From sequence record OR062943.1: a stretch of DNA of 64,000 nucleotides. One strand, 5' to 3'. Origin of the DNA: Escherichia phage 241Ecol014PP. Position numbers and translations under genes: made by a program. Below, piece after piece: positions 1 through 29,473 of the stretch; within the stretch, counting starts at the first letter, position 1; each line of letters starts with the position of its first letter. The notes beneath the pieces were generated by a model. That model was given only the letters and a program-made list of their open reading frames with translations, was not told the origin of the DNA and made no database searches.

Positions 1-252
1 GCCAAAGGTGGTTCGACATCTAAAAAGAAAAAGAAAAACCCGAGAGAGGATGTTGGCCTTACTGTAACCACATGCCTTAACGGAGCTATCCTCCCAGAGT
101 CCACTATTTATCTTAAAAGCAAGCAATATACAGGCTTCTATAAGGTGATCACGGTGCATCATAAGGGCACCATAGAAGGTGGTGACTACACTACAGAGCT
201 TGGCCTTGGGGAAACAGTGGGTGGAGTTGTTGACAAAACTGAGGAGGTATAA
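1..252 (+). CDS. 3' end of an upstream structural gene, truncated by window edge
   Basis: Frame 1 is open from position 1 to TAA at 250-252; stop overlaps ATG of next gene; tail ...KVITVHHKGTIEGGDYTTEL...; function not assignable. Confidence 0.4.
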   Translation, partial: AKGGSTSKKKKKNPREDVGLTVTTCLNGAILPESTIYLKSKQYTGFYKVITVHHKGTIEGGDYTTELGLGETVGGVVDKTEEV

Positions 253-929
253 TGGCAATAAATAGGAAAGATGCTGCTGTAAGATCCTTTATAGAAAAAA
301 TAATGAGGGACTACCACACCAGTATCAGGGCCAGAGTTGTCAGTGTAGACTACAGTATCCCTTCTGCAGCCGTGCAGCCAATAGCTGAAACCACGTTTGA
401 TGACGGAGATGTGGAGAGATACCCTCTTATCTATGACGTTCCAATTCAGGTGATGTCTGCAAACAGCGGAAAGGCAAGGTTAACACTCCCTATTAAGGCT
501 GGAGATGTTGTAGGATTGCAGTTTTCAGAGAGAAATGAAAACAATAACGACGATCAACAAACTCACGGCCTGTTTCCAGGGTGGGCAATCACCTCTGTTC
601 ATTCAGACTCAAACGCCTTACAGATCGATCCTGATAACGTAGAGTTATGGAATGATAGGGTTTATTTTAAACTGACACCTTCTGGCGATTTTGAGCTTCA
701 AACACCTGGTGGGACATTACGGTGCGACAGCAGCGGGGAGTTTTCTTTCACTAACGGGTCTGCCAATTTGCGAGCTGCTGTGGATGGGAATATCAGAATG
801 AATGGTGCTACAATAGACCCATCTGGTAGAATTATAACTGCTGCTGGCGTGGATTTGGATTCATTCTATGCAGAATATAAAGGTCATACCCACTCTTGCC
901 CTGATGGCGAGACAAGTGGACCGCACTAA
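252..929 (+). CDS. baseplate central spike-like protein (gpV/gp138-like)
   Basis: 225 aa; RBS GAGGAGG upstream; N-terminal region ARVVSVDYS...GDVVGLQF resembles spike OB domains; C-terminal His-rich tip GHTHSCPDGETSGPH. Confidence 0.4.
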   Translation: MAINRKDAAVRSFIEKIMRDYHTSIRARVVSVDYSIPSAAVQPIAETTFDDGDVERYPLIYDVPIQVMSANSGKARLTLPIKAGDVVGLQFSERNENNNDDQQTHGLFPGWAITSVHSDSNALQIDPDNVELWNDRVYFKLTPSGDFELQTPGGTLRCDSSGEFSFTNGSANLRAAVDGNIRMNGATIDPSGRIITAAGVDLDSFYAEYKGHTHSCPDGETSGPH

Positions 930-941
930 TAGAGGGCTTTC

Positions 942-1658
942 ATGGCTACGCTTTATAGTGATATATTGATGGACCCACAGACAGGCGATTTGGCGATAGA
1001 CAAAGGTCTTGAGTTGATAGATTCAAACCAGGTAAGTCTGCGCCAGCGCTTGTGGATGAGGTTTAATACGTGGAAGGGGAGCTGGTACTTTGACGAACTG
1101 TTTGGCTTCCCTTATATGGACTTTCTCAGTAAGAAGGTCATGAAGACTGTTCTTGATAACAAGATCATGGAAGTGGCAAGACAAGAGCCGGATGTGCTAA
1201 ACATCATAAACTTCCAGTCTACCATGGACCGAAGATCGAGAACATACCAAGCGTTCTTTGAGGTTGTTACCAAAGAGAACGAGATTGTAAGGCTGGCTTT
1301 CGTAGGTCTTGATCAGTTCACCTACCCACAACCTGATTCTGGGACAACCTCTCTCTGTGATGATGAGGGTTGGATTAAGTGGGCTAATAAACTGTACTAC
1401 CTGATCAACTTCAGATTACCTAGAACCGGAGATGCCACATGGTGGAACCAGTATGCTGGTCCTGAGATGGAAAACCCGATCCCTGTAGGCTCTCTGTTGA
1501 CTCAGGATAAAGATCTGCTGATGACTGAGGCAGAACAAACCATTAACCGCAATACCTGGACGCTTGCTCCAGATGAGCGCGAATACTCTGGTGTTATTGC
1601 TACCTCCAATGATGAGGCTATTGCCAACCAGTCTGGTCGTGCTATTGATGTTAACTAA
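942..1658 (+). CDS. baseplate wedge-like protein (gp25/gpW-like or related)
   Basis: 238 aa; N-terminus ...SLRQRLWMRFNTWKGSWYFDELFGFPYMDF resembles baseplate wedge families; position after spike gene. Confidence 0.35.
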   Translation: MATLYSDILMDPQTGDLAIDKGLELIDSNQVSLRQRLWMRFNTWKGSWYFDELFGFPYMDFLSKKVMKTVLDNKIMEVARQEPDVLNIINFQSTMDRRSRTYQAFFEVVTKENEIVRLAFVGLDQFTYPQPDSGTTSLCDDEGWIKWANKLYYLINFRLPRTGDATWWNQYAGPEMENPIPVGSLLTQDKDLLMTEAEQTINRNTWTLAPDEREYSGVIATSNDEAIANQSGRAIDVN

Positions 1659-1667
1659 GGAGAAATC

Positions 1668-2336
1668 ATGGCTGTAGCTTATCCTACAATACCAATTCCA
1701 GATCTTGAAGATGCAGAAACAGTCCTGAGTGATGACTTCTTGGTTGTCAACCAGACTGATGGGACAAGAAAGGCTAAGATTGACGATGTTGTCAACGATC
1801 TTAGTATTACTAAGATAGTCTATTTCACAGAGGGTGGTTATCTTAAGAGCAAGAAGGACTTTGCTTATGACCCAGAGACTAAGCGCTACTACACGTGGAA
1901 CGGGGATTATCCTAAAATAATCCTACCAGACTCCACTGTAGAGGGTGCTGGGGGCGTGTCTGCAAATGCCTGGTCTGTTTTTGGTGAGCTTGCTGCAACT
2001 TCTTCTGGCAGAATAGTTGATTACGGATCTATCGGTGGTCAGCTTGATATGGATCTTGAAGTTGCGGATACCTTTAAGGTTCGACTAACTTCAAATACCA
2101 CAATCTCTTTTGAAAATCAAACAGAAGGTCTTGAAGGGGTGGAGAGAACTATAACCGTATGCATTACTCAGACCTCTGGCGGCAACAAAGTCTATTGGCC
2201 TGGTAATGTTAAATGGTCCTACGGAAGAGATCCTATCCTAACATTTACAGCTGGTGCAACAGATATTTTCAAGTTGGAAACCTACGACAACGGGTTAACT
2301 TGGTACGGGGCACTGATTATCGCAGGAGCTATCTAA
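1668..2336 (+). CDS. tail fibre/adaptor protein sharing N-terminal anchor domain with the 4971 fibre
   Basis: 222 aa; N-terminal ~80 aa (DDFLVVNQTDGTRKAKIDDVV...FTEGGYLK...DFAY) aligns with N-terminus of ORF 4971-8771. Confidence 0.45.
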   Translation: MAVAYPTIPIPDLEDAETVLSDDFLVVNQTDGTRKAKIDDVVNDLSITKIVYFTEGGYLKSKKDFAYDPETKRYYTWNGDYPKIILPDSTVEGAGGVSANAWSVFGELAATSSGRIVDYGSIGGQLDMDLEVADTFKVRLTSNTTISFENQTEGLEGVERTITVCITQTSGGNKVYWPGNVKWSYGRDPILTFTAGATDIFKLETYDNGLTWYGALIIAGAI

Positions 2337-2337
2337 G

Positions 2338-4935
2338 ATGCGTATTCAACATAACATTGATAACGTATTTCAGATGATTGAGGGGCACAGGAAGTGCCTC
2401 GATAACAACACAGGTATTACCAACACCCCTACACAAAATAAGCTAGTAAACCCTGATGGTCTTATAGCTGCAGGGTGGGCAGGTAATAAGATAAATAATG
2501 ATTGGGCAATGCATGAGTCCCAAGCTGTGTTGATTCTGGGATACATTGAAGCATACAGGGCATCGAAAAGCGATTTCTATCTGGATAGGGCAAAAGATGC
2601 TTGGGAAGCTTACAATAGTCATCTTCTTGGTGCATATGCTGTAGAAAGTAAAATGCAAAGATTGTCCCACTACCCTCTATCCACAGACGGGGTTCCATCA
2701 CATGGTGGGTTTAAAGATGTGGTGGTGTCTTTTACCAATGGTAGAGGAAAAATCCCAGCTGGATCTCCGACATGGGGGGAATACCTGGACAAGGCATTCC
2801 AAGCGTATAACGGTGTGTTAGGAAGAAACACTGTAGACTCTGATGTTTACGGTGGCACAGATGCTAACCCAGATTGGACAACATCCGGATTAAGTTGGTG
2901 GGTTGAGTGGTACATAGCATGGGATGGTAACCGCTATTGGGCTAACGGTAGCATAGCCGACAGTGGTCATACGTCTGTAGAGTTCGGCACAATCCAATTA
3001 CAAGATAAGGGTGTTACAGGCAGCCACAAGGTGACCTATTGTGTAAGATTACCTCAAGAGCAGGGTGGATCGGTGATACCTGCAGGATCCCCTGTAATTG
3101 TAAATCCTATAAACGTGGTTGCAGATAATCAAGCCCCGGAGTTGGACGGGGAAGAGATGTGGTGTGACGCTTGTTATCAACTCTACACCTTGACAGGTGA
3201 GGAAAAGTATTACACCGCGTTTGAACAGTCTTACAACAAGTTGCTTAATTTCAGTGATATAAACGCCTACGACAAACTGTTTAGAAAGACCACGTTGATT
3301 AAGGCACCGTTCACAGATGGTACTTGTCTTGTTGCAGGAACAGTTCCTGTCATGAGCAGGGACAGTGACGGGTATATCAATTTTAGAATGAACGCACGCC
3401 AGCCTTGCGAAATAATTCAAAAAGGGACTACATACAAAATAGGCAGAGATGCTGAAATTGTTATGAATTTCGGAGGAGAAGGTGTTCTGTTCCAGCCGCA
3501 TTTCATCCTTAATGATGGCAACAATAACAAAAAACAGTACAGGATAGGTGTCCCTTTTGGAGGTGCAGAGGTAACAGAAATAGTTGCCAAGGTTACTGAT
3601 TTCGTAGAGGTAGTTGGTAAAGACGGTAATCCGTATCTCTTACCTAAAGAGGAAAACATTGCCGTAAGCGGTGGTGCTAGTGTTAGTATGCAGTATGATA
3701 CCGACATTTACAACCACTCTGACAACTTCACCCGTTGTAATATAGCAAGAGGTAAAGTAACTTTCAATTTTGGAAGAGAGATTTCTTTAAACTCAGTAAC
3801 TTATCGATCAGATGATGAGATGGTAAGGGTCAAATTTCTTGACAAAGACAGGTGGTTATGGTATGCTGATCTATATGCCACTAATGGACAATGGATAACA
3901 GAAACTCTTACTCTAGGAGATTTCAAACTAGATCCGACACAGCCTCATCACACCGAAGAAGAGATTAAACCTTTCTTTGCTAATCCTAAGGGGCTCACCT
4001 CTGTAGATTTCAGCCTAAGCGACAGGCAGATAGGTAATGGCTTGTTTGATCTGTATTGCGTCAACACACTGCCGCAATTTTATATTGCAGATAGGGATGC
4101 TTATCTAATCTGGTTTAGCGTATGGATGGCAAGCAAGACAGAATCAACCGCTAAGGTTGGCGATTGCTATGTCAGAAACTACAAGCAAGGTGCATACAGG
4201 CACACACCCGGTGTGTTCCCTGCCGGAAAGGTGATAGATAAGGAAAACTATCTCTTGGAGGAAAGGCCAAATTGGCCCTACCCTGGCATGCAATACCCAG
4301 CAGTCTACTGCATGGGTGCAGAAAACATAGATCGCCATAGATTGTCAAATACAATAGGCTTTCTGTATGACGCTCAAGTCTGGTATAACAATACATTTAA
4401 GACAGAAGGTCCAGTTGCCTCGCGTTATGTATGGCAGAGAGGCAATGAAGGGTTGACTGGTTGGTGGGAGATGGTAGATAACTCTAAACTACAGTCAAGA
4501 TCTTTTGTTGCTGCGTGCCGCACAATATATGAGCTCAAGAAACATAAAGAACCTGTTGATGAAAGACTATTCCTGTTCTGCCAGAAATGGGCATGGTTCC
4601 TCAACAGATTCCAGTCATCTCATTCAGGAAATCTGCCTACAGACTTTAACACCTCTGGGGGATACTCTTATCAAGACAGAGGGGACAGGATGTGGGTGGT
4701 AGGTGAATGGCTTGCAGGTTGCTGCTGGCTAGGTCTGTGCGGGTATTCAGAGACAATACCTCAAATAGATATTGTTGTAGAAGCCTGTGTGAAGCTACTG
4801 CAAAAGCACCACTTCATTAATGGGGATAATATTTTAAACGGCTGCTGGGCAGTTTCTGATCCGGTTGGCTATCACTCTGGCGAAATCCTTCGCGGTCTGG
4901 GCCTTTATGCTCAATACCGTGGATTGTACCTTTAA
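2338..4935 (+). CDS. large tail-associated protein, possible glycoside hydrolase/depolymerase
   Basis: 865 aa, Trp/Tyr-rich; ATG 2 nt after upstream stop; enzymatic assignment speculative. Confidence 0.35.
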   Translation: MRIQHNIDNVFQMIEGHRKCLDNNTGITNTPTQNKLVNPDGLIAAGWAGNKINNDWAMHESQAVLILGYIEAYRASKSDFYLDRAKDAWEAYNSHLLGAYAVESKMQRLSHYPLSTDGVPSHGGFKDVVVSFTNGRGKIPAGSPTWGEYLDKAFQAYNGVLGRNTVDSDVYGGTDANPDWTTSGLSWWVEWYIAWDGNRYWANGSIADSGHTSVEFGTIQLQDKGVTGSHKVTYCVRLPQEQGGSVIPAGSPVIVNPINVVADNQAPELDGEEMWCDACYQLYTLTGEEKYYTAFEQSYNKLLNFSDINAYDKLFRKTTLIKAPFTDGTCLVAGTVPVMSRDSDGYINFRMNARQPCEIIQKGTTYKIGRDAEIVMNFGGEGVLFQPHFILNDGNNNKKQYRIGVPFGGAEVTEIVAKVTDFVEVVGKDGNPYLLPKEENIAVSGGASVSMQYDTDIYNHSDNFTRCNIARGKVTFNFGREISLNSVTYRSDDEMVRVKFLDKDRWLWYADLYATNGQWITETLTLGDFKLDPTQPHHTEEEIKPFFANPKGLTSVDFSLSDRQIGNGLFDLYCVNTLPQFYIADRDAYLIWFSVWMASKTESTAKVGDCYVRNYKQGAYRHTPGVFPAGKVIDKENYLLEERPNWPYPGMQYPAVYCMGAENIDRHRLSNTIGFLYDAQVWYNNTFKTEGPVASRYVWQRGNEGLTGWWEMVDNSKLQSRSFVAACRTIYELKKHKEPVDERLFLFCQKWAWFLNRFQSSHSGNLPTDFNTSGGYSYQDRGDRMWVVGEWLAGCCWLGLCGYSETIPQIDIVVEACVKLLQKHHFINGDNILNGCWAVSDPVGYHSGEILRGLGLYAQYRGLYL

Positions 4936-4938
4936 CAT

Positions 4939-4960
4939 AGGGGGCTGTTTGCCCCCTTTC
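4939..4960 (+). terminator. stem-loop GGGGGC-tgttt-GCCCCC with short T run; weak terminator or RNA processing hairpin
   Basis: 7-bp GC stem immediately after stop of ORF 2338-4935, followed by TTTC then RBS AGGAG of next gene. Confidence 0.3.
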
Positions 4961-4970
4961 AGGAGAAAGA

Positions 4971-7900
4971 ATGGCTGATATTAAAGTTGTCAGAATTGAA
5001 TCTCTTCCTGCCACTACCGCAGTGACAGAGGATGATTACCTGGTTGTTCAGCAACCAGACCTGACCCGTCGTGTAAAAATTGGCGATGTTGTCCATGTGG
5101 ATGGGACTGTTTCTCATGTAATCTCCTTTAAGGAAGGTGGTAAGTTAAACGGCCCAATGGATTTTGCCTACTTCGAAGAGGAAGACCTCTACCTGCGTTG
5201 GAAAGGCGAATTTCCCCACACTGTTCCTGCACTATCTTCACCGTACTCCGATGGTGGGATTACTGACGCTGCATGGATGGTATATACAGATCCGTCCTTA
5301 AGGGAGGAGCTGGAATCTACCATTGGCGCATCTATGATCATGACAGCCGAAGGGCAGTCTGTCCAGGATGTAATGGATGTTACTGTTCAGACAGCTAACG
5401 ATGCTAAAGCACTTGCACAGCGTGTAGATTTTGGTACAGTGCACACCGTAGGCGATGTTATTCACCTTGATAACTTTGTTGGCCCTGCAGTTATTGAAGA
5501 GGGAAGAACCACCAACTACCCTTCTGTAGCAGCTGGTGAAAAATTTCTGAACGGTGTGGTATCTCGCCGTGATACTACAACTGTTGATGGTATTTTCCGT
5601 GGCGCTACCACCGGAGCCATGTACACCATTGCAGTAACCAACGGTGTAGCAACAACGAAAAGAATAGCACTTCGTGATGAATTTAAACGCCTAGAGGCAA
5701 ACAACCCAACAAGAACAGTTATCCGTGCTGGAGATGATTTAAATACGGCAGGGTACTTGCAGCTTGATGCAACAGGCCGTTGGGGTATGTGGAACCAACA
5801 AACAGCTTCGTGGCAACCTCTTGCTATAGAGCAAGGCGGCACAGGGGCTAGAGATGCCGCTGGAGTCCGTATCAATATCGGTGCTTTCTATAAGCAACGT
5901 GCAGCCCTTGAGCCAAATTTCCATATCAATAACTTGACTGGTAATCAGGATGGTGTATACTACCAGCCGATGACTGCTTATGCAACTGAGGCAAATGGTT
6001 ACCCTGCAGGTTCTGGTGCTGGTCACTTGATTGTTTGGCAGAACAATGCTAACGGCGGTACAGGTTGTCGTCAGGAATACTACCCATTCTCTAACGTAGA
6101 TGTTTGGTATTTGAGAACCTATCAGGCCAACACAAATCAGTGGACTGCATGGCAGCCGATGGTTAGACCTCGTAACGATAATACCTTTAGATCGCACATC
6201 GGTCTTGGGCCTAGAAATACCCCTACCTTCGGGCACATTTACCTGTCTCAAAGTTCTGCTGATGTTAAGTCAGCCTCGGGTATTGTTAACGGGGACAAAT
6301 ACAGCGCTGACGGTGTCCTTGAGCATGGATATAGGATCTATTCTGAGGTAAGAAACGACAATAAGGCTTGGTTGACAATCCACCTGCACAAAGGTGCAAA
6401 AGGATCTGAAACTCATAAATATTTAGGTTTCCGCGAAGACGGCGTATTAGACTGCCCTAAATATATGCAGGTTGGGGATCTTACTGGTCAGCTGACAAAC
6501 TGGGGACTTGGAGAATGGATTCGTAGTTCAGGAGCAGAAAGAGGCTTCTGGGGGTCCAAGAAAGCCGCCAAGATGGTTATCTGGGATGGTGGGATGGACG
6601 AATCCGGTAACGGCACTCTGGAATGGGGTGTTTATAACAACCGGAAGGCCAAGTGGGAACCTCTACCTCAAGCCGCAGGTGGCACTGGGGCTACAACTTT
6701 AGCAGATGCTCAGAATCTGTTCAAAGTTCCTATAGCAGCAGGTGTAAAAGACTTCTTAACACTGCCAAGAACCGCAGGGATGGAAGATGGGAAATACTAC
6801 CCAATCATCGTTAGAACAGATCCGTATTACTCCCCTGCGACAGGTGCAGATATTACTATAGTCACCAGGTCTTCATATGGAGATGACCCTATGAACTGTG
6901 CCACCCTGCAGTGTCACTATAGAACTGGCGGCTGGTCGGACAGGGGAGACTCTTTCTACGGGGTAGTAAATTTCTACCAGAATGAAAAAGCACTTCTTGG
7001 GATGGTTGCTCCAACAAGGGGTAAACAAGAGTATGTTGCTTTCTATGCAGAGGCTCGTGCTTTCCCTGTCAGCATATACGCAAGTAGAAATGTTGTCGAA
7101 GTGTTTACCAGAGAGCAAGATTATCAAGTCGGCTCTGTAACAAACAATCAGGATGGGGTTAAGTTCGTTGCACCTCTTCAATCAGCAGATTTGAATCTTG
7201 CTATTCTTGGAGATAACAACACCAATACCAGACCTATTGTTGACTTCAAAGGTACTTCAGGATTCTACACTGGTGGCGGCACACAGTGGCACTATATAGG
7301 TTCTGCTGAACGCTATGCTGTGATGAGCAAAATGAATATGCCAAAAGTCGAGCTATGGGCAGACGGTCTTGACTATTTGTGCTACGGCAGTCCTAGAAAG
7401 GCGTTATTCTCTAATGCAGGATTCCAGTGTGCATCGGAAGGAACAGAGGATCTGATCAACAACACCTTTACCTCTAAATGTGGTAATGGTGCAAGACTGC
7501 AAGGCCAGGCAGAGTTCAGATCTACTCCGGAAGCTGGTCAAGTTATCGTTCGCGATGTTGTAGGTACAGCTCATAAGTTCTACAATTTCAACAAAGACGG
7601 CACATTTTTCCCTCCTGGGGGCTATGTTTGCCAGACAGGTGCTGACTGGAACAATCAGTTTGGTAATACAAACCCCTCCAAGATAATGGCTGGCAATGTC
7701 AACGGGCCGGAAGGTTCGATGGTTGTTGGCGGGGTGTCTGTAGCATTTTCTGGGAACTATGCTTTCCAAATGGCTGGCCGCCTTGATCAGTTATACACCA
7801 GATCTATCGAGGGTGGTAACCATAGAGCGTGGAACAAGGTCATACAACACAGAGGGCAAGGTCTGGGGATTAATGACCTTAACGACTACAAAGGGGATAG

Positions 7901-8771: not shown

Positions 8772-8778
8772 CTGTTTT

Positions 8779-8806
8779 GCCCTCGCTTCGGCGGGGGCTT
8801 TTTGTT
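8779..8806 (+). terminator. rho-independent terminator (UUCG tetraloop hairpin + T tract)
   Basis: GCCCTCGC-ttcg-GCGGGGGC followed by TTTTTGTTTG, 8 nt after stop of fibre gene. Confidence 0.7.
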
Positions 8807-8810
8807 TGTA

Positions 8811-8839
8811 TTGCGTATTAACTCAAAATCTGGTAAAAT
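8811..8839 (+). promoter_or_regulatory. sigma70-like promoter TTGCGT-N17-TAAAAT with TGn extended -10
   Basis: TTGCGT 8811-8816, 17-nt spacer ending in TGG, TAAAAT 8834-8839; sits between terminator and ORF 8871. Confidence 0.5.
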
Positions 8840-8870
8840 AGCTATCATGATTGTTTAACCTGGAGGCACA

Positions 8871-9461
8871 ATGTTTTTATGGGAAAGGCCTAGATACCTT
8901 CCAGATATCAGATTGGAGCTGCTGGCAGATATTGTTACGTTTAAAAGTCCGTTTACAGGTAAAACGCAAAAAGTAACCTATGCCACACCTAACTGGAAAG
9001 GCACTTTGACGGTTTCCAATATCAGCGAGTCACAGTTGCTAGAGCTTAAGAGCTTTGTTGATCAGGTGTATAAAGATGGAAACATCTTTCTTATTAAAAC
9101 TTACGGTCACTCAGTAACAGCTAATGAGCCAATCGCCCTTGGGCCTACTGGTAACGACGATTTTTTGAAGACGGTTGGGTGGGAGCCAAACAGAGACATA
9201 GCCAGAGCTGGGGATAAAATATCTGTCAATGATGAATTGAAAGTGGTAACAGCTCCAGTGCGTAGCGATGGTGTTGGGTCTGCTGTTATAAGCATATCTC
9301 CAAGACTTAGAAAACCTATTGCCGCAGGGGACACTATGAAGATAATAACTCAATCCCCGAAGGGTAGGTTTCATATCAGAGATATTTATAAAATTAAGCA
9401 AAAAGTCGATGCTATGCAAAAAGGTGATAATATAGTTATCAACTTCTTTGAGGATTTCTAA
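8871..9461 (+). CDS. minor tail protein (lambda gpM-like N-terminal region)
   Basis: 196 aa; RBS TGGAGG; segment WKGTLTVSNISESQLLELKSFVDQ resembles lambda M from memory. Confidence 0.35.
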   Translation: MFLWERPRYLPDIRLELLADIVTFKSPFTGKTQKVTYATPNWKGTLTVSNISESQLLELKSFVDQVYKDGNIFLIKTYGHSVTANEPIALGPTGNDDFLKTVGWEPNRDIARAGDKISVNDELKVVTAPVRSDGVGSAVISISPRLRKPIAAGDTMKIITQSPKGRFHIRDIYKIKQKVDAMQKGDNIVINFFEDF

Positions 9462-9462
9462 G

Positions 9463-15874: not shown

Positions 15875-15885
15875 GGCGGCGAGAT

Positions 15886-18644: not shown

Positions 18645-18656
18645 TCAGGAGATAAA

Positions 18657-19697: not shown

Positions 19698-19711
19698 ATC
19701 GGAGGACTAGC

Positions 19712-20307: not shown

Positions 20308-20622
20308 GTGGAGTTGGATTTGGCGGCATTGTACGGTATCTGCATGGGTACCGTTGTCCCGATCTGTGTATGGGCTTTCAACCAGTGGCACACCAAATGG
20401 AAAGGCATTTCCAAGAGGTTGGAAGAGCTGGAGAAAGACCTCATCTTAGTGAAAAACAGTATGGTTACAAAAGATAAACTTGATTCCGTTATAGAGACCC
20501 GGTTAAGCAAGCTAGAGGCCGATATTAACGACCTTAAGCAGGATGTCAGGACAGATGTCTCCGGCATCAGAGCCGATGTACAAAAGATTTTGCACATGCT
20601 CGTAGAGCATAGTAAAAGGTAA
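20308..20622 (+). CDS. small membrane-anchored coiled-coil protein
   Basis: 104 aa; GTG start with RBS GAGGAGG; N-terminal hydrophobic helix LYGICMGTVVPICVWAF then heptad-rich region. Confidence 0.4.
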   Translation: MELDLAALYGICMGTVVPICVWAFNQWHTKWKGISKRLEELEKDLILVKNSMVTKDKLDSVIETRLSKLEADINDLKQDVRTDVSGIRADVQKILHMLVEHSKR

Positions 20623-20708: not shown

Positions 20709-21755
20709 GTGATGACTAAACCAGTTATCCCTCTTGATATTTGGGCCAATCAGGATGTTGTGCTTGAAAATACGGGAGAGTTGAATAAGTCTCAACCAAA
20801 AAAAGAAGAGAGATTGAAAGGTTGGGATATGACACAAAGAGTGGCATGTGAAGTTGTTAACTTTGAACTTCACATGCTTTCTGCGTGGTTAAAGCATTTA
20901 ACAGAAGATGTTGTCCCAGGATGGGATAATAGATTCTTAAGGGTCACTAATAATCTAGCAGACGTTCCAGACAAAGCTGCTGCACGTCAAGTTCTCAATG
21001 TATACTCGCCTGAAGAAATGGACGATCTGTATGTTGACAAGTCTGGAGACATAATGACTCAGACTCAAACTTTAGGCCTTCAAAGAATCGAGTTTGCATC
21101 TGCGTCAACAGACAATGCGGCAATATATACCACCATAACTCCAGACAAGACGACGATGGACTTCTGGATTATGGACAACATCGGTGGTGCTGACGGCACA
21201 GACCTTGATGATCCTTCTCACCAAATAGACGGGTTCCGTTGGAGATTTCAACCTTCTGGTGGGCAGCCTGTGTTTTCGGCTATGAAGCTCAATGCTATAA
21301 CTGCCAACCGTGCAAGACTGGCTATCCAAGGAAATCTTGAATGCAACGATGCAAAAAGTTCCTCTGCAAATGCCAATGCGGTCACGATACCAAGAGCCAC
21401 TGTTAACGGACAACAATCCTGCGGAAGCGCTCAAATAGGTGGAAGAGTTGATTGTAACGATGAAACCGTTAGAGGCCAATATGCAACCGTTGGTGGAAGA
21501 AACGTGGTCCGCAGGGTAAACGGTAACAGCGCAGACGGTAGTGGTAACCTTACTGTCCCTATGCCCAGTAGAGGGGTTGACGATGTAAGGATAGCGAACC
21601 GTTTCAAAACCACCTACAGAGAGTCAAGAGTCTACCCTGGACATGTGATGTGCTCTGGTAACTACGCTTATAAACACCCTTATCAAGGTGATTACTGGAC
21701 AGGTGCTATCCAAAAACTTGTAAACGGTCAATGGATCACTATATCTTATGCTTAA
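20709..21755 (+). CDS. second side tail fibre protein (gpH/Stf-like), paralog of 18657-19697
   Basis: 348 aa; N-terminus PLDIWANQDVVLEN and C-terminus TGAIQKLVNGQWITISYA parallel ORF 18657; central region diverged. Confidence 0.65.
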   Translation: MMTKPVIPLDIWANQDVVLENTGELNKSQPKKEERLKGWDMTQRVACEVVNFELHMLSAWLKHLTEDVVPGWDNRFLRVTNNLADVPDKAAARQVLNVYSPEEMDDLYVDKSGDIMTQTQTLGLQRIEFASASTDNAAIYTTITPDKTTMDFWIMDNIGGADGTDLDDPSHQIDGFRWRFQPSGGQPVFSAMKLNAITANRARLAIQGNLECNDAKSSSANANAVTIPRATVNGQQSCGSAQIGGRVDCNDETVRGQYATVGGRNVVRRVNGNSADGSGNLTVPMPSRGVDDVRIANRFKTTYRESRVYPGHVMCSGNYAYKHPYQGDYWTGAIQKLVNGQWITISYA

Positions 21756-21766: not shown

Positions 21767-22033
21767 ATGAAACTAACTCAGTTTTTATGGGGACTGGTTG
21801 CGGCATCTGATGACCCTACGAAAGTATCCCAATCTAAGCTATGGTCGAACATAGGCATGGCGGTGATGACTGGGGTGTTTATTCATATGGGGTATAATGA
21901 TACGCTTCCTGAATGGTATGCGTGGATATATGCACCTTCAGTAGCCTGCCCCCAGCTTATTAGCAAATTCATCTCGCTCCGGTGGGGTTGCCAGCACCCT
22001 GACCACGTTAAAAACGAAGAGCAAAAAGCTTAA
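21767..22033 (+). CDS. small hydrophobic protein, function unknown
   Basis: 88 aa; two hydrophobic segments. Confidence 0.35.
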   Translation: MKLTQFLWGLVAASDDPTKVSQSKLWSNIGMAVMTGVFIHMGYNDTLPEWYAWIYAPSVACPQLISKFISLRWGCQHPDHVKNEEQKA

Positions 22034-22042: not shown

Positions 22043-23788
22043 ATGGCGCAAGACATGACAAGCTTCGAGCAGGCGGTAGATCAAGTAATTGTTGATTCTG
22101 AACGTTTGCACTTGATTGTCAACGGTAACGCTGTGGATGAAGTTGTCGTAGAGGATGGGACCACTATCCCTACGGTACGAAAAGCCATGCTTGACACCCT
22201 TTATTTTAAAACGCCACCAATCCCTTGGGCGTATGGTGCATCCACAACAGTTTTTAACCAGTTGTATGAGTTTAAAGGGGATACAGGCACTCAGTGGTGG
22301 TACGCCCCAGCAGCATCAAAATCTAACCCGGTTAGAATGCCAGCAGATCCTTCACAATCTCCAAACTGGAGATTATACACCGACTCTGCAGTAATGGCAA
22401 AATACTACGCAAAACTTAACAGCCCAAGGTTCGAAGGTGACCCGCGAGTACCTACACCTCCAATGGACGATAAGTCAGAGTCCATAGCAAACACAGAGTT
22501 TGTTGTTGACTATGTTGATAGCATATTTAAAGCCATGGAGGGGATGAAAGTTACTGTAGGATCTTTGGTGGTAAAAGGTCTTACAGAACTCGCTAACACT
22601 ATAGTTGGTGGCACCCTTACCTTACATGGACCTGTTAATGGGGCAGATTCTACTGCACGCTTTAGGAATCTAATCCTCACGGCAAATACTTCTACACTTA
22701 CTTTTGCGTGGAGCGATCCTAAGCATGCAGACTGGAGAAGTACAGAGCTGCAACCTCATGAAGTGTCCACCCACAGGGTTATAGCTGACACTATAACTTC
22801 TGGGAAACCAGTGGCTAATAATAACGATGTGCATTTTGATGGTCTGGGTAATAACTTTTTTGACTACGTGTACATTCGTGGTAATGCCATGAAGGCAGCA
22901 ACCGAGCCGACATTGCAGGTCGATGGGACCGCCAGGGTTAAGAACCTTGAGGTGACAGGCACCGTTACAGGGATAACATACTCTGTCGATGGCACCATGA
23001 TCTACCCTAGCTATATTGAAAGCACGGGTGATGCATTGATAAATGGCGATTTGGAGGTTGGCGGATCTGTAGTTATTCGAGGTACAGCCTCTATCCAAAA
23101 CATAGCTCTGAATACCCTAAGAGTCAATGAGCGTGCAACTTTTGAAGGGGAAGGACTTACAGCCAACAAAGGTGTAATTACCGAGCTGACAACCACTACT
23201 TTAACTGCAACAACTGCAAACTCTGAAAACTGCAACGTTACCAGAAACTTGCAGGTAAATGGAGATGTTAGTTTAAACGCAGCAGGGACGGGCACCACCT
23301 ACCTTCACAACCTTGAAATATCCGGCACAGTGACTGGGTGGCTGCCAGACTTCTCTAATGTCAACTTTGTTTGTAATGGCATTAACTCCAGTGGCAAGAT
23401 AACCACCTCTCAAGAAATTGAGGCGGGTAAAACCATTACTGCCCCTACTTTCCACGCAGGAAAGGTAGATTTTGATTTAGAGGAGGTTGACGCGTCCAGT
23501 GGGACATGGACACCTAACGGGCAGGCCAGTATGTATGTTGTCCACGCGAAAGGGGATTTTACAATAGGACAATGGCCTGGGACATCAGCGGAAGATAAAC
23601 CTTATCCATTCACTGCAGTTATCTATGTCATTCAGGATGCTGTAGGTCACAACGTGACTTTGCACGATAAGTATGCTATCCTGTCGGCAACACCTGTTAT
23701 TAACAACAAGGCTAACAGTGTTACCTTGCTGCAATTAACGTATTGTGGTGTTGGTGATATTGTAGACGTAGTAATTGCACAACGTTAA
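22043..23788 (+). CDS. tail fibre/structural protein
   Basis: 581 aa; RBS AAGGAG; Thr/Asn/Gly-rich repetitive beta-like sequence typical of fibre shafts. Confidence 0.4.
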   Translation: MAQDMTSFEQAVDQVIVDSERLHLIVNGNAVDEVVVEDGTTIPTVRKAMLDTLYFKTPPIPWAYGASTTVFNQLYEFKGDTGTQWWYAPAASKSNPVRMPADPSQSPNWRLYTDSAVMAKYYAKLNSPRFEGDPRVPTPPMDDKSESIANTEFVVDYVDSIFKAMEGMKVTVGSLVVKGLTELANTIVGGTLTLHGPVNGADSTARFRNLILTANTSTLTFAWSDPKHADWRSTELQPHEVSTHRVIADTITSGKPVANNNDVHFDGLGNNFFDYVYIRGNAMKAATEPTLQVDGTARVKNLEVTGTVTGITYSVDGTMIYPSYIESTGDALINGDLEVGGSVVIRGTASIQNIALNTLRVNERATFEGEGLTANKGVITELTTTTLTATTANSENCNVTRNLQVNGDVSLNAAGTGTTYLHNLEISGTVTGWLPDFSNVNFVCNGINSSGKITTSQEIEAGKTITAPTFHAGKVDFDLEEVDASSGTWTPNGQASMYVVHAKGDFTIGQWPGTSAEDKPYPFTAVIYVIQDAVGHNVTLHDKYAILSATPVINNKANSVTLLQLTYCGVGDIVDVVIAQR

Positions 23789-23836: not shown

Positions 23837-26800
23837 ATGCTTCCAATCCCTTTGCTAAAACTTGGTCGTCATTTCCTCGATAAGAGGGGTGGAATTAAGG
23901 AACTTGCTGTTCTGTCATACCCAATAGACAACAGTGATGGTACAAGCAACACAGTATCCTATGTAAATAGCTTAGCTATACTTTTTGATGATGGTCAGCT
24001 TAATATTACTGGCTATAATAGGTTCGGAGAGTGTCGGACTGGAGATCTTGATACAATAAACTATCCTAATGAGGCTGCCTGGAACGTTGATCATGTGTGG
24101 AGAGCAGACCGTGCGTTTGTGATCCGAACTTTTGATAACCAGTTTTTCTACATCGGCTGCACTGCAGGGCTTATTGGGTCTGATGCTGCAGGCGGTAATG
24201 ATGTTTGTGTAAGAGAGTGGACACCTCTTCCTGAACAGATCGTTAAAGGGTTGCACCTTGACACCCACCCAGAGCGCCTTATTGAGGTGATGGGTGGTAT
24301 TAACAACACTGTCTGGGTTATTGCAGAGGCAGAAGGCACTGGCATACTTAACCTGTATGGATCTGGTAACAACACCTACGGATCTTTGCATGTAGATAAA
24401 AACCAGCATGCAACCCCTGTAAAGATTGGTGAGACATCGGAAAATCCTGAAACAGGCCCTTGGAAAAACCCAAGCATCAACTGTGAGGTGCATGACAACT
24501 CTGTTATTTTCGGTGGTCCTAGGGGTTTCTGGATTGCTGGATACGACTTTCTAAGAAATAACAGTAGAAACGACCTTGTTTGGCCTCCTGTGCAGATTAC
24601 TCGTAACGATTTGAGAGGCATTCCTGCAGATGAGGAGTGGAAAGGGTTTATGTGCGGTCCTAACGGGGCAATAATTGCCACACAGAGGATGCACACACCT
24701 AATGACCAGCAGCTTGTTAACGTATTCTACGGGCAAGACGTTTGGGGAGATGACACATGGCGTTCCTTAAATATCACCTACACCCATGAGGTGATAATGG
24801 CTCGTGGATACGGCACAAGTGGCATTTTCTTCAATAATGGCACTAAACAGTATCGTGGATTCTCTCGCAACTTGTGTAATGATATTGGTGCACAATCTGC
24901 AAACAATAGCCCTAGGGCTAATTTTATCCACTATCAGGCTCTTGCTACAGCTAAATATGTTGAGCAACGCCTGCCAGTTAGCTGGACAGAGAGTGTTTAT
25001 TTCCAAGGCATCCACAGGGAAGGTTTCTTAGGAACCTTTACTGTTGTTAATGGCAAACTTTGGTGGTCAGGCATCCCAAGGGGAAGTTTTGCAGGCTCTA
25101 ACAACCTGTTTGGCGGCAGACTTAATAGCCAGGGGTTCACAGAGGTTCCTGAGAATTGGTATAAAAATGTCCCGGTAGATAGTTGGGGTGTTGATGATAT
25201 TTTCGACGTTAACGGTGTTAGCAGCGTTAGCAATATTTACATTGGTGACACGGTCAAGATGAAATTGAAGCCTCAGCCAGAGGGGGCTACGTTCATTATT
25301 GACAAGATTGAACTGGTAAATGCTGCAGGCACGGTTGTTACAGATGCAAATTACCAATTCTCCACCAACTGGAACCACGGCGGGGCCAACGAAGTTGTTG
25401 TTACCCAATATAACAGAAATGTTAACAGACGTGGACTGTACTCTGTAAAAATAACCTATCATGACAAACATGGCACAGGCAGAACCCACACAACAAGGAC
25501 TTTGAACTGGAACACTATCGTCCCAGCGTACCCGTCTGATGGTAAATGGCATACTGTCGGTAGAAACAAACAGTTCCATGTTAATGATACTGTATACTTT
25601 GGGCTGAATGCGGCTCAGCCTGCAGTAGAAGGGGATACATCGTATATGGTCAGACTCCACAGAATGGATGCTGGATCAGTAACTTATGATGTTACCCAAG
25701 AGATTTATAATCAGCGACGAAATACCTATGATAACTTGGTGCAGACACAGGCCTTATGGGAGTTCAACCCAAACGGCAGAGGTGGTAAAATGTTGCAGGT
25801 CAATGAACAAAACGGGACATCGTTGACTGTCCATGAACATCCAAATCCTTGGCCTGATCCTGGAAAACCTAACTCTGGTGCTCGTACACTGAAAATTGTT
25901 AGCCATGATGCAGGATATTTCGGAATACGCTGGGAAGCCACAGTAAGATATGCCGACGGGACAACAAACAATATAGGGATCACCCTTGGTGGCACTAGTG
26001 AGGATAACTCACTGAAAATTGCCTACACCCCTAGAGGCATCTCTATTGACAATATGGATGTTGTTCGCAACGGTTACGGCGATGTGAATGTCAAAGTTAC
26101 TCTTGGCGAACATCTTGGTGGGGAAAGGATCATCATGTATGCCTTTGATCATGATCCGCGCACCAATGGGACTTATGCAAATCAGGCATGGAGTTATCTG
26201 ATAAATGCACCTGAGCCGAATACTAAAGAGTTCTACTACGGTATGAAGCGAGATGTGTGCAAGAAAACAGGAACACATGACTGGATTGCTATCTGCGTTA
26301 AAGATGAGCGCACAGCTTGGGATGAGCCTGTTAACAGATGGTTCATAGGTATTCCTACCAGAAGTGATAAGTATGTCGCAGAATATATTGTATGCATGGG
26401 CGGTACCAACCTAAACATGTGTTGGAACGAAGATGTAAACAAATACTCTGATTATGACTATATGAGGGATTACTCTTGTAATTTGTGGTTTAACCAAACT
26501 ACAGGTTACCCTCCGCGTCAGGCAAGGGTAAATCCTGCAATCTTTACAGATACGCAGGTTTTCTTGACAAAACAGGCCAACGAGGTCCAGACCTTCAAGA
26601 ACAAATACGACCCTAATAAGTGGTTCTATAACTGCTATGGGGCATTTTTCTGGGGACCTGGAGAATTACCTGGTGGTGGCTCTTGTTTTGAGGCTGCAAC
26701 TTACGCCAGTGACAGATTTATGGGCCAGGTCAAGAAATACAAGATAATTCCAGGGCCTGAAACTTTAGGCAACGCTGTCGACCCCTATATCATCATGAGT

Positions 26801-29473
26801 GATCTAAGATCGAACATGGATGGAACATCCATATCTATGCAAGTTCCGGTAACAAACGGATACAAGCGTGTTGTGATGATCATTAAGTGCGATCTGATAG
26901 GTAAGCAAGTTCTTGCAGAGAACGGAACTTCCACCCACCTATTTGAGACTGCTCTGCACTATCAGTTTGCTGATTCACCTTTTGCAGGGGATAAGAGAAT
27001 ATCTGACACAGACGCTGTGCGATGCAAGAAATTTATGCTAGGTGGTGGGTGGTGGTGGTATGAATTTGACTTAACAGACAAATTCACCGACACGTCTAAA
27101 GTAGTGACGGGGCTTCGTCTAGACCTTGGCGAAAACATGCACAAAAGTGTTTGTGATGGCACCTACGGTGACCCAACAATCTACTTAAAGTATGTCTCTT
27201 TTGAGCACCCAGAGGATGTTGTTTATGGTCCAAAACTGAGACTGTTTGGCAATTGGATTGCTAAAGACAGGGTAGGTATGGGCAAGAAGGTAAGAGGCTT
27301 CTTAATGGATGCCGGTACAGAGGACATGCTAGTCAATGCAGTGTGGCCTGAATTACCTGGGACTCAGTGGAACAACTCAGCCAAATCTATAAACTGGTTC
27401 AATATCCACAGGGCTATGTGGACAACCAACTGTTACCTGTGGAAAGAGCTGAATGACGGCGCTTTCGGGTTCACAGGCGGCAGAAGAATGGCAATCATTT
27501 GCTGGACAACGTTGCAAAGATGTTATGACCATGACTACGAGATTGGAGGTAGGGCATGGAAAAATATTAGGGATAGAATCATAACCAACTTTGCAGATCC
27601 TAACGGTGGTGGAGCGTATGGCTTCGACTGCAGCAGGCTCATCCATTTGAACGGATCCTCTGCCTACAAGAAAGAAGGTTACTCTGGGTCTATGATAGAA
27701 TGGGGCCTGGTGAAAGATGCTCGCGTGCTGATGGGTCAACAACTTGCTGCTGCAATAGGTCCTAATGCAGTGCAATCTGTTAAACCTGCGTGGTTTGATA
27801 TCCCATTGTGGTCATCCGGTACACCAGGAACTGCTGCAATCAACCCTACCACGGGGGATCTGGAAATCTCTTGGGAGGACTTGAAGCAGGTTGGAGGCTG
27901 GGATAAAACAGGGTATCAGGTCCAGTGGTGGAGGGCTGATGGATCTTTAGCCGCTGATGAGTTTGTTAAGGACAATTTCTACACCATGTCCTCTGCAAAA
28001 GCACAGCAATTATTTGGTCAGGCCACTCCGTCAACGATCACCATGTCTATGTGCTGTAAAGACAACAGGACTGGAGCTTTGGGGCCAAGGGTTGCTAAGG
28101 TTTTCTCAGGTATTAAATGGAATCTCCCTGTTCAAAGTGTTTCATGGAAGCAAATAGGTGATAACAAGCTGCTGGTTACCCCTGCCTGTCAGTTCAACGC
28201 AACTCTTAACGTTGATCCTGCTGTTGCGGCAAACTCAGCTAAAGCTTCTGACTTCTCTGTGTCTAACACTGCTATGGCAGATGTGAGGAAGATTGACACA
28301 CTGAACGCCAGAATTACCTGTAAAAACACTTATGGCACATTCCAAATCATCAACAACTTCACAGATGCTGATTCTAAGGTAGTAAGGACAGCAAGCCAGA
28401 CTCTGAGTTTAGGGACTCTAGCCTATGCGGCCATGATCACCGAACAGTCGGCAACACTCCAAGGAGGCGGTGTAGGCAAGTCCATTGCAACACCTGTGTG
28501 GAAGCCGAATGAGTGGGTTGTGTTTGATTTGACTGTGGACTTCTCCAGTGATAATAACTGGACATGGGTAAGGAATTGTTTGTCACAGTTGATGGGCGGT
28601 CCAAGCTCCATTAGCGATAGTCACGACTCTACTGACCCGAGCGTGTTCCAGGTGGGTAAAACTCACCCAGAGACTGGAGAAACGTTGCCTGACAGGAAGT
28701 ATGCTTTGGTTTGCATCTCTTACGGGAAGGCAGATGTCACCTTCTCAGGGACACACACTTATAACGGAACCTACAACTTCTCAAGGAAGTATAGTCTCAA
28801 AGCAGGGAACATTGTAGACGAGGTTGGTGTGCTGTATAATCCAGGTAACGGCATAGGGATTGTGGGTGGTAAACTGCAGATGCAGGAACCTTCTATTACC
28901 CCTTCCAACGTATCCGGTATTAGAAAGACTTGGGAAAGTAGTAATACCAACATTGCAACAGTGGATGCTGCCACAGGGCTGGTAACATTTAAAGCTACTG
29001 GGAATGTCACCATAAAGTTTGTAGTTACTGATGATGCAGGGCGCAAAACGTCTTCAACATCTTTTACTGTCAAACAGATGGCACCACAGTGGAGAATGTG
29101 GATAGGTACAGCAACAAACGGGGCATACCCTAATCCGGCAGGTACTTCTGGTATGAAGACTTTCTCTACAAGCAAACCGATGGAGTACGGCAGCGGTCCT
29201 AAGGTAGGGCAGATGGTGTACTTTGGTGCGTATATTCCTGAAATTATAGGGCTTCCTAGAAGTCAGCTTCAGTTGCTGTTTGGGGCTGGTGTTGACGATC
29301 TTGCCACTTTCGGGTATAGCGACAACATCGAGGCTGCAAGGAGTTCAGGATGGGTAGGGTTCAGAATGGAGTCTGGAAAGGAAGGCAGGATTCTAGGGAC
29401 AGCCTCTATAGGTGTTATGTTCCCTGGTGACCAGCAGTATCGTCTAGAAGCCTACGCAACCTTTTCTCGTTAA
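23837..29473 (+). CDS. giant adhesin/tail fibre-like protein with C-terminal bacterial Ig-like (Big_2-like) domain
   Basis: 1878 aa; RBS GGAG; segment SGIRKTWESSNTNIATVDAATGLVTFKATGNVTIKFVVTDDAGRKTSSTSFTV fits Big_2 pattern. Confidence 0.5.
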   Translation: MLPIPLLKLGRHFLDKRGGIKELAVLSYPIDNSDGTSNTVSYVNSLAILFDDGQLNITGYNRFGECRTGDLDTINYPNEAAWNVDHVWRADRAFVIRTFDNQFFYIGCTAGLIGSDAAGGNDVCVREWTPLPEQIVKGLHLDTHPERLIEVMGGINNTVWVIAEAEGTGILNLYGSGNNTYGSLHVDKNQHATPVKIGETSENPETGPWKNPSINCEVHDNSVIFGGPRGFWIAGYDFLRNNSRNDLVWPPVQITRNDLRGIPADEEWKGFMCGPNGAIIATQRMHTPNDQQLVNVFYGQDVWGDDTWRSLNITYTHEVIMARGYGTSGIFFNNGTKQYRGFSRNLCNDIGAQSANNSPRANFIHYQALATAKYVEQRLPVSWTESVYFQGIHREGFLGTFTVVNGKLWWSGIPRGSFAGSNNLFGGRLNSQGFTEVPENWYKNVPVDSWGVDDIFDVNGVSSVSNIYIGDTVKMKLKPQPEGATFIIDKIELVNAAGTVVTDANYQFSTNWNHGGANEVVVTQYNRNVNRRGLYSVKITYHDKHGTGRTHTTRTLNWNTIVPAYPSDGKWHTVGRNKQFHVNDTVYFGLNAAQPAVEGDTSYMVRLHRMDAGSVTYDVTQEIYNQRRNTYDNLVQTQALWEFNPNGRGGKMLQVNEQNGTSLTVHEHPNPWPDPGKPNSGARTLKIVSHDAGYFGIRWEATVRYADGTTNNIGITLGGTSEDNSLKIAYTPRGISIDNMDVVRNGYGDVNVKVTLGEHLGGERIIMYAFDHDPRTNGTYANQAWSYLINAPEPNTKEFYYGMKRDVCKKTGTHDWIAICVKDERTAWDEPVNRWFIGIPTRSDKYVAEYIVCMGGTNLNMCWNEDVNKYSDYDYMRDYSCNLWFNQTTGYPPRQARVNPAIFTDTQVFLTKQANEVQTFKNKYDPNKWFYNCYGAFFWGPGELPGGGSCFEAATYASDRFMGQVKKYKIIPGPETLGNAVDPYIIMSDLRSNMDGTSISMQVPVTNGYKRVVMIIKCDLIGKQVLAENGTSTHLFETALHYQFADSPFAGDKRISDTDAVRCKKFMLGGGWWWYEFDLTDKFTDTSKVVTGLRLDLGENMHKSVCDGTYGDPTIYLKYVSFEHPEDVVYGPKLRLFGNWIAKDRVGMGKKVRGFLMDAGTEDMLVNAVWPELPGTQWNNSAKSINWFNIHRAMWTTNCYLWKELNDGAFGFTGGRRMAIICWTTLQRCYDHDYEIGGRAWKNIRDRIITNFADPNGGGAYGFDCSRLIHLNGSSAYKKEGYSGSMIEWGLVKDARVLMGQQLAAAIGPNAVQSVKPAWFDIPLWSSGTPGTAAINPTTGDLEISWEDLKQVGGWDKTGYQVQWWRADGSLAADEFVKDNFYTMSSAKAQQLFGQATPSTITMSMCCKDNRTGALGPRVAKVFSGIKWNLPVQSVSWKQIGDNKLLVTPACQFNATLNVDPAVAANSAKASDFSVSNTAMADVRKIDTLNARITCKNTYGTFQIINNFTDADSKVVRTASQTLSLGTLAYAAMITEQSATLQGGGVGKSIATPVWKPNEWVVFDLTVDFSSDNNWTWVRNCLSQLMGGPSSISDSHDSTDPSVFQVGKTHPETGETLPDRKYALVCISYGKADVTFSGTHTYNGTYNFSRKYSLKAGNIVDEVGVLYNPGNGIGIVGGKLQMQEPSITPSNVSGIRKTWESSNTNIATVDAATGLVTFKATGNVTIKFVVTDDAGRKTSSTSFTVKQMAPQWRMWIGTATNGAYPNPAGTSGMKTFSTSKPMEYGSGPKVGQMVYFGAYIPEIIGLPRSQLQLLFGAGVDDLATFGYSDNIEAARSSGWVGFRMESGKEGRILGTASIGVMFPGDQQYRLEAYATFSR

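Follow-up and report, generated by a model that had tools for sequence, protein, structure and literature searches.

A Vequintavirus baseplate and tail-fibre module that contains a siphovirus-type tail-tip cassette

The module and its kin

The window analysed here is a 64,000-nucleotide (nt) stretch of DNA from Escherichia phage 241Ecol014PP (record OR062943.1). Positions 1–29473 of the window form an unbroken plus-strand block of about 20 baseplate and tail-fibre genes, the 5' end of which lies inside the hub gene. In an initial annotation, made from the sequence without database searches, this block had been described as a mosaic adsorption apparatus with at least six candidate receptor-binding proteins; every open reading frame (ORF) named there is present in its place on the plus strand, and nine fibre-type proteins were found. 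The mosaic character was upheld by profile, structure and homology searches: the module combines a contractile-tail core, Tail_spike_N proteins of the kind found in phages CBA120 and G7C, a deacetylase fibre like N4 gp65, short fibres like Mu S, and a siphovirus tip cassette. Its least explained part is this cassette (8871–14278).

The first 25 kb of the window are 96–97% identical at the nt level, over 100% of the query, to phages magaca, rV5_ev147/ev156, phiWec191, slur16 and JohannBauhin (BASEL Bas53). Public records matching this region numbered 131, with coverage of at least 80% in 70 of them. The annotated Bas53 locus is gene-for-gene collinear with the window, and non-collinearity with Vequintavirus genomes was excluded. 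On the strength of the nt identity and the collinearity with Bas53, the window belongs to a Vequintavirus (rV5-like) myophage of E. coli, and positions 1–29473 are its baseplate and tail-fibre module. Compared with the rV5 tail-fibre locus, the gene order is the same and protein lengths fit rV5 gp27, gp30, gp33, gp37, gp41 and gp43; the differences are allelic only (the J coiled coil, the 1266-amino-acid (aa) fibre and probably the 1878-aa protein). The adsorption module is thus the already published Vequintavirus apparatus, which has been called a 'nanosized Swiss-army-knife', has been known since 2012–13 and has been seen in part with cryo-electron microscopy (cryo-EM; PMC3606486, PMC8594841, PMC12143355). 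That rV5-like and phi92-like phages are multi-fibre phages is likewise established (PMC3606486, PMC8594841, PMC13450770). Among the module proteins, NCBIfam named the J-like protein and the Big_2 region only.

The tail-tip cassette at 8871–14278

The cassette and the signals that bound it are as follows.

8779–8798, plus strand: terminator-like hairpin that has a TTCG loop and a run of T, then an extended -10 TGGTAAAAT
8871–9461, plus strand: distal tail protein (Dit) of siphovirus type, in the position of rV5 gp40 (PHROG 1302 'distal tail protein', E 2e-50)
9463–10014, plus strand: tail-tip protein of 183 aa at the lambda gpL position (PHROG 2048)
10014–10439, plus strand: DUF6950 protein with an NlpC/P60 fold, equivalent to the C-terminal half of lambda gpK (Pfam DUF6950, 115 bits)
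10439–14278, plus strand: 1279-aa J-like central-fibre protein, rV5 gp37 (Pfam; lambda gpJ from the Protein Data Bank, PDB; PHROG 31 'central tail fiber J')
14285–14306, plus strand: terminator-like hairpin that has a TTCG loop and a run of T, then TTGACT-17-TAAAAT with TG

The four genes, which encode in this order Dit, the 183-aa protein, the DUF6950 protein with its NlpC/P60 fold and the J-like fibre, have collinear counterparts after the tape measure gene of the Nonagvirus vB_EcoS_ESCO3, and their products match those of the counterparts at 31% (Dit), 38% ('minor tail component'), 42% (145-aa protein) and 45% identity (J, over 85% of its length). The closest likeness is to the tail tip of the Queuovirinae (Nonagvirus ESCO3, Seuratvirus CAjan), where the four genes likewise come in this order behind the tape measure position, at 31–45% identity. 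More distantly, the cassette resembles the tips of lambda, T1 and T5: J carries Ig_J_second and Phage_Tail_Tip domains as lambda gpJ does, and the Dit profile matches the Dit of DT57C and T5. The setting differs from that of siphovirus tips. The Dit, L and K positions of the lambda J gene context are filled, but a tape measure, a tube and a gpI-like gene are all missing, and the cassette is set within a contractile-tail baseplate operon, flanked by fibre and myophage wedge genes. No discussion of a siphovirus origin of the four genes was found in the literature searched.

The initial annotation had read these genes as a lambda-like gpM/gpK/gpJ tip, a reading that stood for gpJ, held for gpK in its NlpC/P60 half only and failed for gpM. 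The Dit-like protein has 352 relatives by a full HMMER search, all of about 200 aa. A profile of 65 homologues matched the Dit of DT57C (8HQZ_H) with E 3.4e-4 over aa 31–174, and T5 pb9 with E 0.07. At E up to 10, no Pfam family, including Phage_min_tail (lambda gpM), matched the protein or any of the 65 homologues. The gpM call is replaced by a predicted Dit of the T5 pb9 type, outside the lambda gpM family.

The 183-aa protein takes the place of lambda gpL and T1 gp36. It has two Cys only and, in contrast to gpL, no cysteine cluster; neither a Pfam match (E up to 10) nor a meaningful single-sequence PDB match was obtained. Its likely start is ATG 9463, with GAGGA upstream. The mechanical ORF starts of this gene and the next were TTG (9448–10016, 10002–10441); ATG 9463 and ATG 10014, with Shine-Dalgarno-like sequences upstream, agree with the public annotation.

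At the K position, DUF6950 spans all 141 aa with no further Pfam match, and the N-terminal MPN/JAB half of lambda gpK is absent. An AlphaFold2 (AF2) model (mean predicted local distance difference test, pLDDT, 79.7; predicted template modelling score, pTM, 0.77) was matched by Foldseek to MepS 8XUP (E 1.8e-4, probability 1.0, template modelling score 0.55–0.6) and also to LytE and RipD. The alignments behind the AF2 models were shallow, the homologue search having given 6–7 proteins per query. In a small alignment of five sequences, Cys33 and Cys34 were invariant and no His was. Single-sequence PDB searches with this protein and with the Dit-like protein returned nothing meaningful.

The J-like protein matched Pfam Phage_Tail_Tip (132.4 bits, cutoff 22) and Ig_J_second (106.1 bits, cutoff 27), as well as lambda gpJ 8IYK_J (E 1.6e-28). 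Equivalence to lambda J does not extend over the full length: NCBIfam lambda_TipJ scored 153.9 bits against a cutoff of 1950, with aa 497–722 as the only good stretch. By tblastn, the region that includes the hub aligned at aa 48–1270 with ESCO3 J (45%) and at aa 49–532 with the 'baseplate hub protein' of Klebsiella phage VLCpiS6a (43.5%). Profile searches, on which the J-like and gpH-like calls had been staked, reassigned neither to an unrelated family.

The hairpins at 8779–8798 and 14285–14306 are the two best plus-strand terminator matches in 1–20000, and the last three genes are joined by stop/start overlaps (TAATG at 10012–10016 and 10437–10441). From its promoter-like and terminator-like signals the cassette is predicted to be a transcription unit of its own. 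The gaps 8772–8870 and 14279–14383 are alike, each with a GC-rich TTCG hairpin, a T run and, about 35–45 nt on, TGGTAAAAT; they look like a repeated terminator-promoter unit.

Ratios of nonsynonymous to synonymous substitution (dN/dS) were obtained here and below from one comparison, that of the window with the Bas58 allele. They were 0, 0.03 and 0.05 for the three small genes (about 0 for Dit) and 0.19 for J. Purifying selection on the cassette is strong. Within the phage collection, the 183-aa protein was present at 95% identity or more in 117 Vequintavirus records and, among the rows sampled, otherwise only at 40% or less, in genomes of 29–85 kb (siphoviruses); among the large myophages sampled, the cassette was confined to Vequintavirus. 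Its reading frames are intact in the 117 genomes and in divergent metagenomic relatives. Such relatives (L007–L010, contigs from metagenomic and E. coli assemblies) keep the gene order, with Dit 85%, the 183-aa protein 87%, J 80% and the wedge protein 93% identical to the window. Their copy of the NlpC/P60-fold protein (genes at about 10001–10426) is only 58–61% identical, which suggests faster evolution or allele replacement of this single gene.

Compared with its Bas58 allele, J is near identical at residues 1–660 and 961–1279 (hub about 99%), and all of the divergence, together with an 80-aa length difference between 1199 aa in Bas58 and 1279 aa here, falls in the coiled coil. This segment (aa 660–960; window 12400–13320) holds 4–5 repeats, each about 50 aa long and marked by the motif TN(K/Q)xTxDL(L/I)N (aa 751, 813, 864, 918 and 961). 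The repeats were not visible at the DNA level, and Tandem Repeats Finder showed no DNA tandem repeats in 1–30000. The BASEL study lists the J gene among three variable 'distal' fibre genes (PMC8594841). What varies in J between the alleles is the stalk, not the tip.

The contractile core and the other fibre proteins

The genes of the contractile-tail core lie on both sides of the fibre genes that include the cassette.

1–252, plus strand: baseplate hub gene, 3' end only, truncated where the window begins (collinear counterpart in JohannBauhin: bas53_0021, 'baseplate hub protein')
252–929, plus strand: predicted central spike of gp138 type with a C-terminal H-T-H tip, in the position of rV5 gp45 (Pfam Gp138_N, PDB matches)
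942–1658, plus strand: sheath initiator, T4 gp25-like (PHROG 120 baseplate wedge subunit, E 1e-20)
14384–15874, plus strand: baseplate wedge protein of the Baseplate_J family, rV5 gp36 (PF04865; PHROG 6, E 7e-45)
15886–16572, plus strand: second wedge or baseplate subunit, in the position of P2 gpI and Mu gp48 (PHROG 4056 baseplate protein)

The spike with an H-x-H tip proposed earlier was borne out. The protein matched Pfam Gp138_N (38.3 bits), the puncturing protein of phiTE (9CUY_Y, E 4e-62) and phi92 gp138 (3PQI, E 2.7e-18), and it ends in ...GHTHSCPDGETSGPH, the HTH of which lines up with that of 9CUY_Y and 3PQI. In phi92 gp138 these tip histidines hold an iron ion (PMC13450770). We assign the protein as a gp138-type central spike with a predicted HxH metal site. 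A Pfam scan of the sheath initiator (E up to 10) gave no match; its homologues in L007–L010 carry a precomputed PF10934 Sheath_initiator match. The P2-like baseplate J call was confirmed by PF04865 at 36.7 bits (cutoff 21.1), and the protein is 51% identical to phiTE_234. The following gene, syntenic with the 'baseplate protein' genes phiTE_235, SSE121 gp041 and phAPEC8 gp092, is labelled 'putative tail terminator protein' in BASEL; its position and PHROG 4056 point to a baseplate wedge partner. dN/dS of the core baseplate genes was 0.01–0.03.

Between the sheath-initiator and wedge genes lies an accessory slot, with no gene in phiTE, three in SSE121 and seven here. In phAPEC8 it holds four fibre-type genes, including an endosialidase and an N4-gp65-like protein, followed by a small membrane-protein gene. 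The slot is a site of fibre-gene accumulation in this phage group. phi92 and phAPEC8 (Stephanstirmvirinae) have the same core and slot and homologues of the 865-aa, 690-aa and Mu-like short-fibre proteins; they differ in having an endosialidase and a colanidase, no Dit/J cassette and a wedge protein only 32% identical. phiTE (Certrevirus, 9CUY) has a homologous spike, homologous N-termini of the short and long fibres and a 51% identical wedge protein, but an empty slot, and two or three fibres against nine here.

Ahead of the cassette, the slot is occupied by three genes.

1668–2336, plus strand: fibre protein of 222 aa, anchored by an N-terminal Tail_spike_N domain, rV5 gp43 (Pfam PF18668, 41 bits)
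2338–4935, plus strand: 865-aa protein modelled as an (alpha/alpha)6-barrel, glycosidase-like, with beta-sandwich inserts, rV5 gp42 and phi92 gp141 (structure model)
4971–8771, plus strand: 1266-aa fibre with an N-terminal Tail_spike_N and a C-terminal Peptidase_S74 chaperone domain, rV5 gp41 (Pfam)

ORFs 1668 and 4971 had been said to share an N-terminal domain of about 80 aa. The common region is slightly longer, with 38% identity over 99 aa (aa 8–105 against aa 7–105, E 3e-18), and both copies match Tail_spike_N (PF18668), a domain named after CBA120 TSP1 and G7C gp66 (Pfam). Within the module, all-against-all BLAST turned up these two copies and no third. The S74-chaperone fibre was recovered as described, with Peptidase_S74 (PF13884) at 60.8 bits (cutoff 22) over aa 1145–1196, a match from which the C-terminus is predicted to be an intramolecular chaperone of the endosialidase type. 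This fibre is allelically variable (94.8% aa identity to the Bas58 allele, dN/dS 0.09).

In SSE121, of the sister genus Seunavirus, a trio in the same arrangement comprises a 224-aa anchor protein, a 929-aa homologue of the 865-aa protein and a 712-aa colanidase, and PF18668 is present in both gp037 and gp039. Over its first 133 residues, the colanidase shows 37% identity to residues 1–134 of ORF 4971; beyond them, it is unrelated. The anchor common to ORF 4971 and this colanidase therefore appears to be a portable docking module, the distal parts of which were swapped between genera. The initial annotation had proposed interchangeable fibres on a common dock, which is supported across genera; within one virion, the two anchor proteins most likely coexist rather than alternate, since the short and the long anchor protein are kept as a pair. 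The arrangement resembles the branched tailspikes of CBA120 (TSP1–4) and G7C (gp63.1/gp66), with Tail_spike_N at the N-terminus of two proteins and distal parts exchanged between genera. It differs in that no T4 gp10-like docking domains were detected in the searches with the intervening 865-aa protein, which is modelled as an (alpha/alpha)6 barrel with beta-sandwich inserts.

A single-sequence PDB search and a three-sequence profile of the 865-aa family gave nothing meaningful. Fold searches returned glycosidase barrels and sandwiches like those of carbohydrate-binding modules, not gp10. As modelled, the protein would have the catalytic fold of a glycoside hydrolase or depolymerase, and we regard it as a candidate glycan-degrading scaffold.

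Downstream of the two wedge genes lie the remaining fibre genes.

16572–18644, plus strand: 690-aa fibre with Calx-beta, N4 gp65-type NCTSP N-terminal and TIM-barrel domains, phi92 gp142 homologue (Pfam)
18657–19697, plus strand: short tail fibre 1, rV5 gp33 (matches to the phiTE short tail fibre, STF, and Mu S)
19712–20296, plus strand: tail fibre assembly chaperone, Caudo_TAP, of Mu gpU / P2 gpG type (PF02413, 46 bits; PHROG 136)
20308–20622, plus strand: 104-aa conserved protein, role unassigned (PHROG 5345 only)
20709–21755, plus strand: short tail fibre 2, rV5 gp30, paralog of 18657–19697 (PHROG 4465)
21767–22033, plus strand: 88-aa predicted membrane protein (PHROG 1322; syntenic with 'membrane protein' genes of SSE121 and phiTE)
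22043–23788, plus strand: 581-aa fibre, homologue of the phiTE long tail fibre (9CUY_g, E 1.4e-77 over aa 8–325)
23837–29473, plus strand: 1878-aa giant fibre or adhesin candidate, rV5 gp27, allelically variable (one Big_2 domain)

The 690-aa protein matched TIM-barrel_NCTSP at 270.3 bits and the other, N-terminal NCTSP domain at 48.3 bits. The NCTSP domain has been assigned to NGR glycan binding in Vequintavirus and phi92-like phages (2026 preprint, bioRxiv 10.64898/2026.04.02.716166), and by analogy the fibre is a proposed binder of an NGR/ECA-dependent glycan (bioRxiv 10.64898/2026.04.02.716166, PMC8594841).

Of the gpH-like fibres that had been called, what stood is a pair of paralogous short fibres (43.5% identity over the full length) with a Caudo_TAP chaperone, which are better termed Mu gpS- or phiTE STF-like. 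ORF 18657 matched phiTE STF 9CUY_c at aa 1–108 (E 1e-19) and Mu fibre S 5YVQ at aa 286–343 (E 1.7e-6); a Pfam scan of the short fibres (E up to 10) gave no match. The chaperone gene follows fibre 18657 directly and lies between the two paralogs. Its dN/dS of 0.54 rests on a handful of substitutions, since dS was only 0.008.

In phiTE, an N-terminal helix bundle of the long fibre touches the sheath initiator, a contact described as a 'rip-cord' (PMC11972413). The 1878-aa protein carries the Big_2 domain for which it had been called an adhesin, in a single copy (aa 1682–1733, 35.3 bits). Its aa 45–184 are 31% identical to the RCC1-like N-terminus of SSE121 gp048 (E 7e-11), and about 1400 residues in its middle fall into no detectable family. 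This N-terminus resembles the RCC1-like propeller start of 604- and 891-aa proteins that occupy the same position in Seunavirus and phAPEC8.

Some further features of the window and its relatives were recorded. Directly after the fibre module (window 29500–36500), the sign of the GC skew reverses and gene orientation turns to the minus strand. The whole window yielded no tRNA gene. Among the matching records, 18 are titled 'Campylobacter phage' (host C. jejuni) and are 96–99% identical to the E. coli phages found here; these host labels look doubtful.

How the apparatus may be built

The reading we favour, at a probability of roughly 0.85, is that this Vequintavirus module specifies a contractile core bearing several fibre sets at once, together with a captured siphovirus cassette that builds a J-type fibre. 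The hub, the gp138-type spike, presumably iron-tipped, the sheath initiator and the two wedge proteins would form the conserved core on which the fibre sets are carried, and the possession of several sets would let a single virion cope with several surface glycans. Going by relatives and the literature, the 690-aa N4-gp65-like fibre may recognise an NGR/ECA-dependent glycan as primary receptor and the Mu-S-like short fibres the outer core of lipopolysaccharide as terminal receptor. The 581-aa fibre, as judged from its relatives, may couple receptor binding to the sheath initiator in a trigger role. The 222-aa and 1266-aa proteins would dock through their common Tail_spike_N domain on a scaffold of which the 865-aa glycosidase-fold protein is probably a part. 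The four-gene cassette, presumably captured from a Queuovirinae-like siphovirus, would build one additional J-type fibre, the stalk length of which would differ between alleles on a constant hub and tip. Three co-expressed fibre sets have been described in the literature, along with receptor genetics (PMC8594841, PMC7229145).

Several points weigh against this interpretation. The receptor assignments derive from relatives and not from this phage, and would hold by analogy. A T4 gp10-like docking domain was not found in the 865-aa protein by PDB sequence and profile searches or by fold searches of its model, and that model, built on a shallow AF2 alignment, is of moderate confidence (pLDDT 64). 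Neither maps nor experiments have located the J-like protein or the three partner proteins on a Vequintavirus virion. In Bas49 and Bas54, nine fibre genes were counted and cryo-EM shows three near-baseplate fibres only, namely the short fibre, the 581-aa type and the S74 type; the same study describes the J-like N-terminal region as one often seen in central tail fibres and gives it no virion position (PMC12143355). Virion mass spectrometry of rV5 gave weak support for gp27 and gp37: coverage of gp37 was 4.2%, with one or two convincing peptides, and the text of that study does not name gp38–40 among the proteins found (PMC3606486). A paper on O177 phages with 'proteomics' in its title holds no mass spectrometry data.

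How much of the cassette ends up in the particle is the question on which the principal alternative turns. Vequintavirus virions might carry a working siphovirus tip, with a Dit ring, the L-position protein and a J hub-and-fibre trimer, put together with the help of an NlpC/P60-fold factor and grafted onto the contractile baseplate as a true siphovirus/myovirus hybrid, and not a simple lateral J fibre. We hold this to be a real possibility, somewhat short of an even chance. The four genes have all been kept in collinear order, with translational coupling and under strong purifying selection, the alleles agree at about 99% in the J hub region, and a Dit would be superfluous if J were merely a fibre. 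Lambda gpK, however, is an assembly factor and not a part of the virion, so retention of all cassette genes is no proof that all of the proteins are in the particle. The cassette also lacks a tape measure, tube and gpI-like gene, the hub and the gp138-type spike already fill the tail axis, and no such density has been reported for Bas49 or Bas54 (PMC12143355).

Absence of the cassette from the otherwise similar baseplates of Seunavirus, Certrevirus and Phapecoctavirus, and from the published maps (PMC12143355), might be taken as a hint that it is a relic of evolution, or a selfish passenger, that plays no part in adsorption. This is highly improbable. Its dN/dS values (0–0.05 for the small genes, 0.19 for J) are comparable with those of the core baseplate genes and largely refute the idea; moreover, the frames are intact in the 117 genomes and the divergent metagenomic relatives, the cassette has promoter-like and terminator-like signals of its own, and a gp37 peptide was found in rV5 virions (PMC3606486). 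It is also unlikely that the fibres are alternatives, such that virions in a mixed population carry differing subsets, for example with a single dock taken by either the 222-aa or the 1266-aa protein. Two proteins do carry the same anchor domain, and cryo-EM resolves fewer fibres than there are genes (PMC12143355), but Seunavirus keeps the short anchor protein and the long anchor enzyme with the scaffold gene between them, suggesting a joint need. Mass spectrometry of rV5 detected gp41, gp42 and gp43 together (PMC3606486), and phi92 carries three fibre sets at six-fold occupancy (PMC8594841, PMC13450770). No invertible or phase-variable element was noticed, though no search for one was made.

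The simultaneous carriage of several fibre sets together with a J-type fibre from the captured cassette is, then, the reading we retain, and the finding mainly confirms that a complex adsorption module can be recognised from raw sequence. The many fibres of rV5-like phages make them therapeutic candidates with a broad host range. For structural work, the question is sharpened to the virion site and ligand of the siphovirus cassette that selection maintains, and to the dock of the Tail_spike_N anchors. If the virions do carry a complete siphovirus tip, they would have a hybrid distal end of a kind that no structure has shown so far, with the stalk length tuned by gain and loss of coiled-coil repeats while hub and tip stay fixed. 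Knowledge of the cassette and the dock would aid host-range engineering, because the same anchor carries a different enzyme in Seunavirus.

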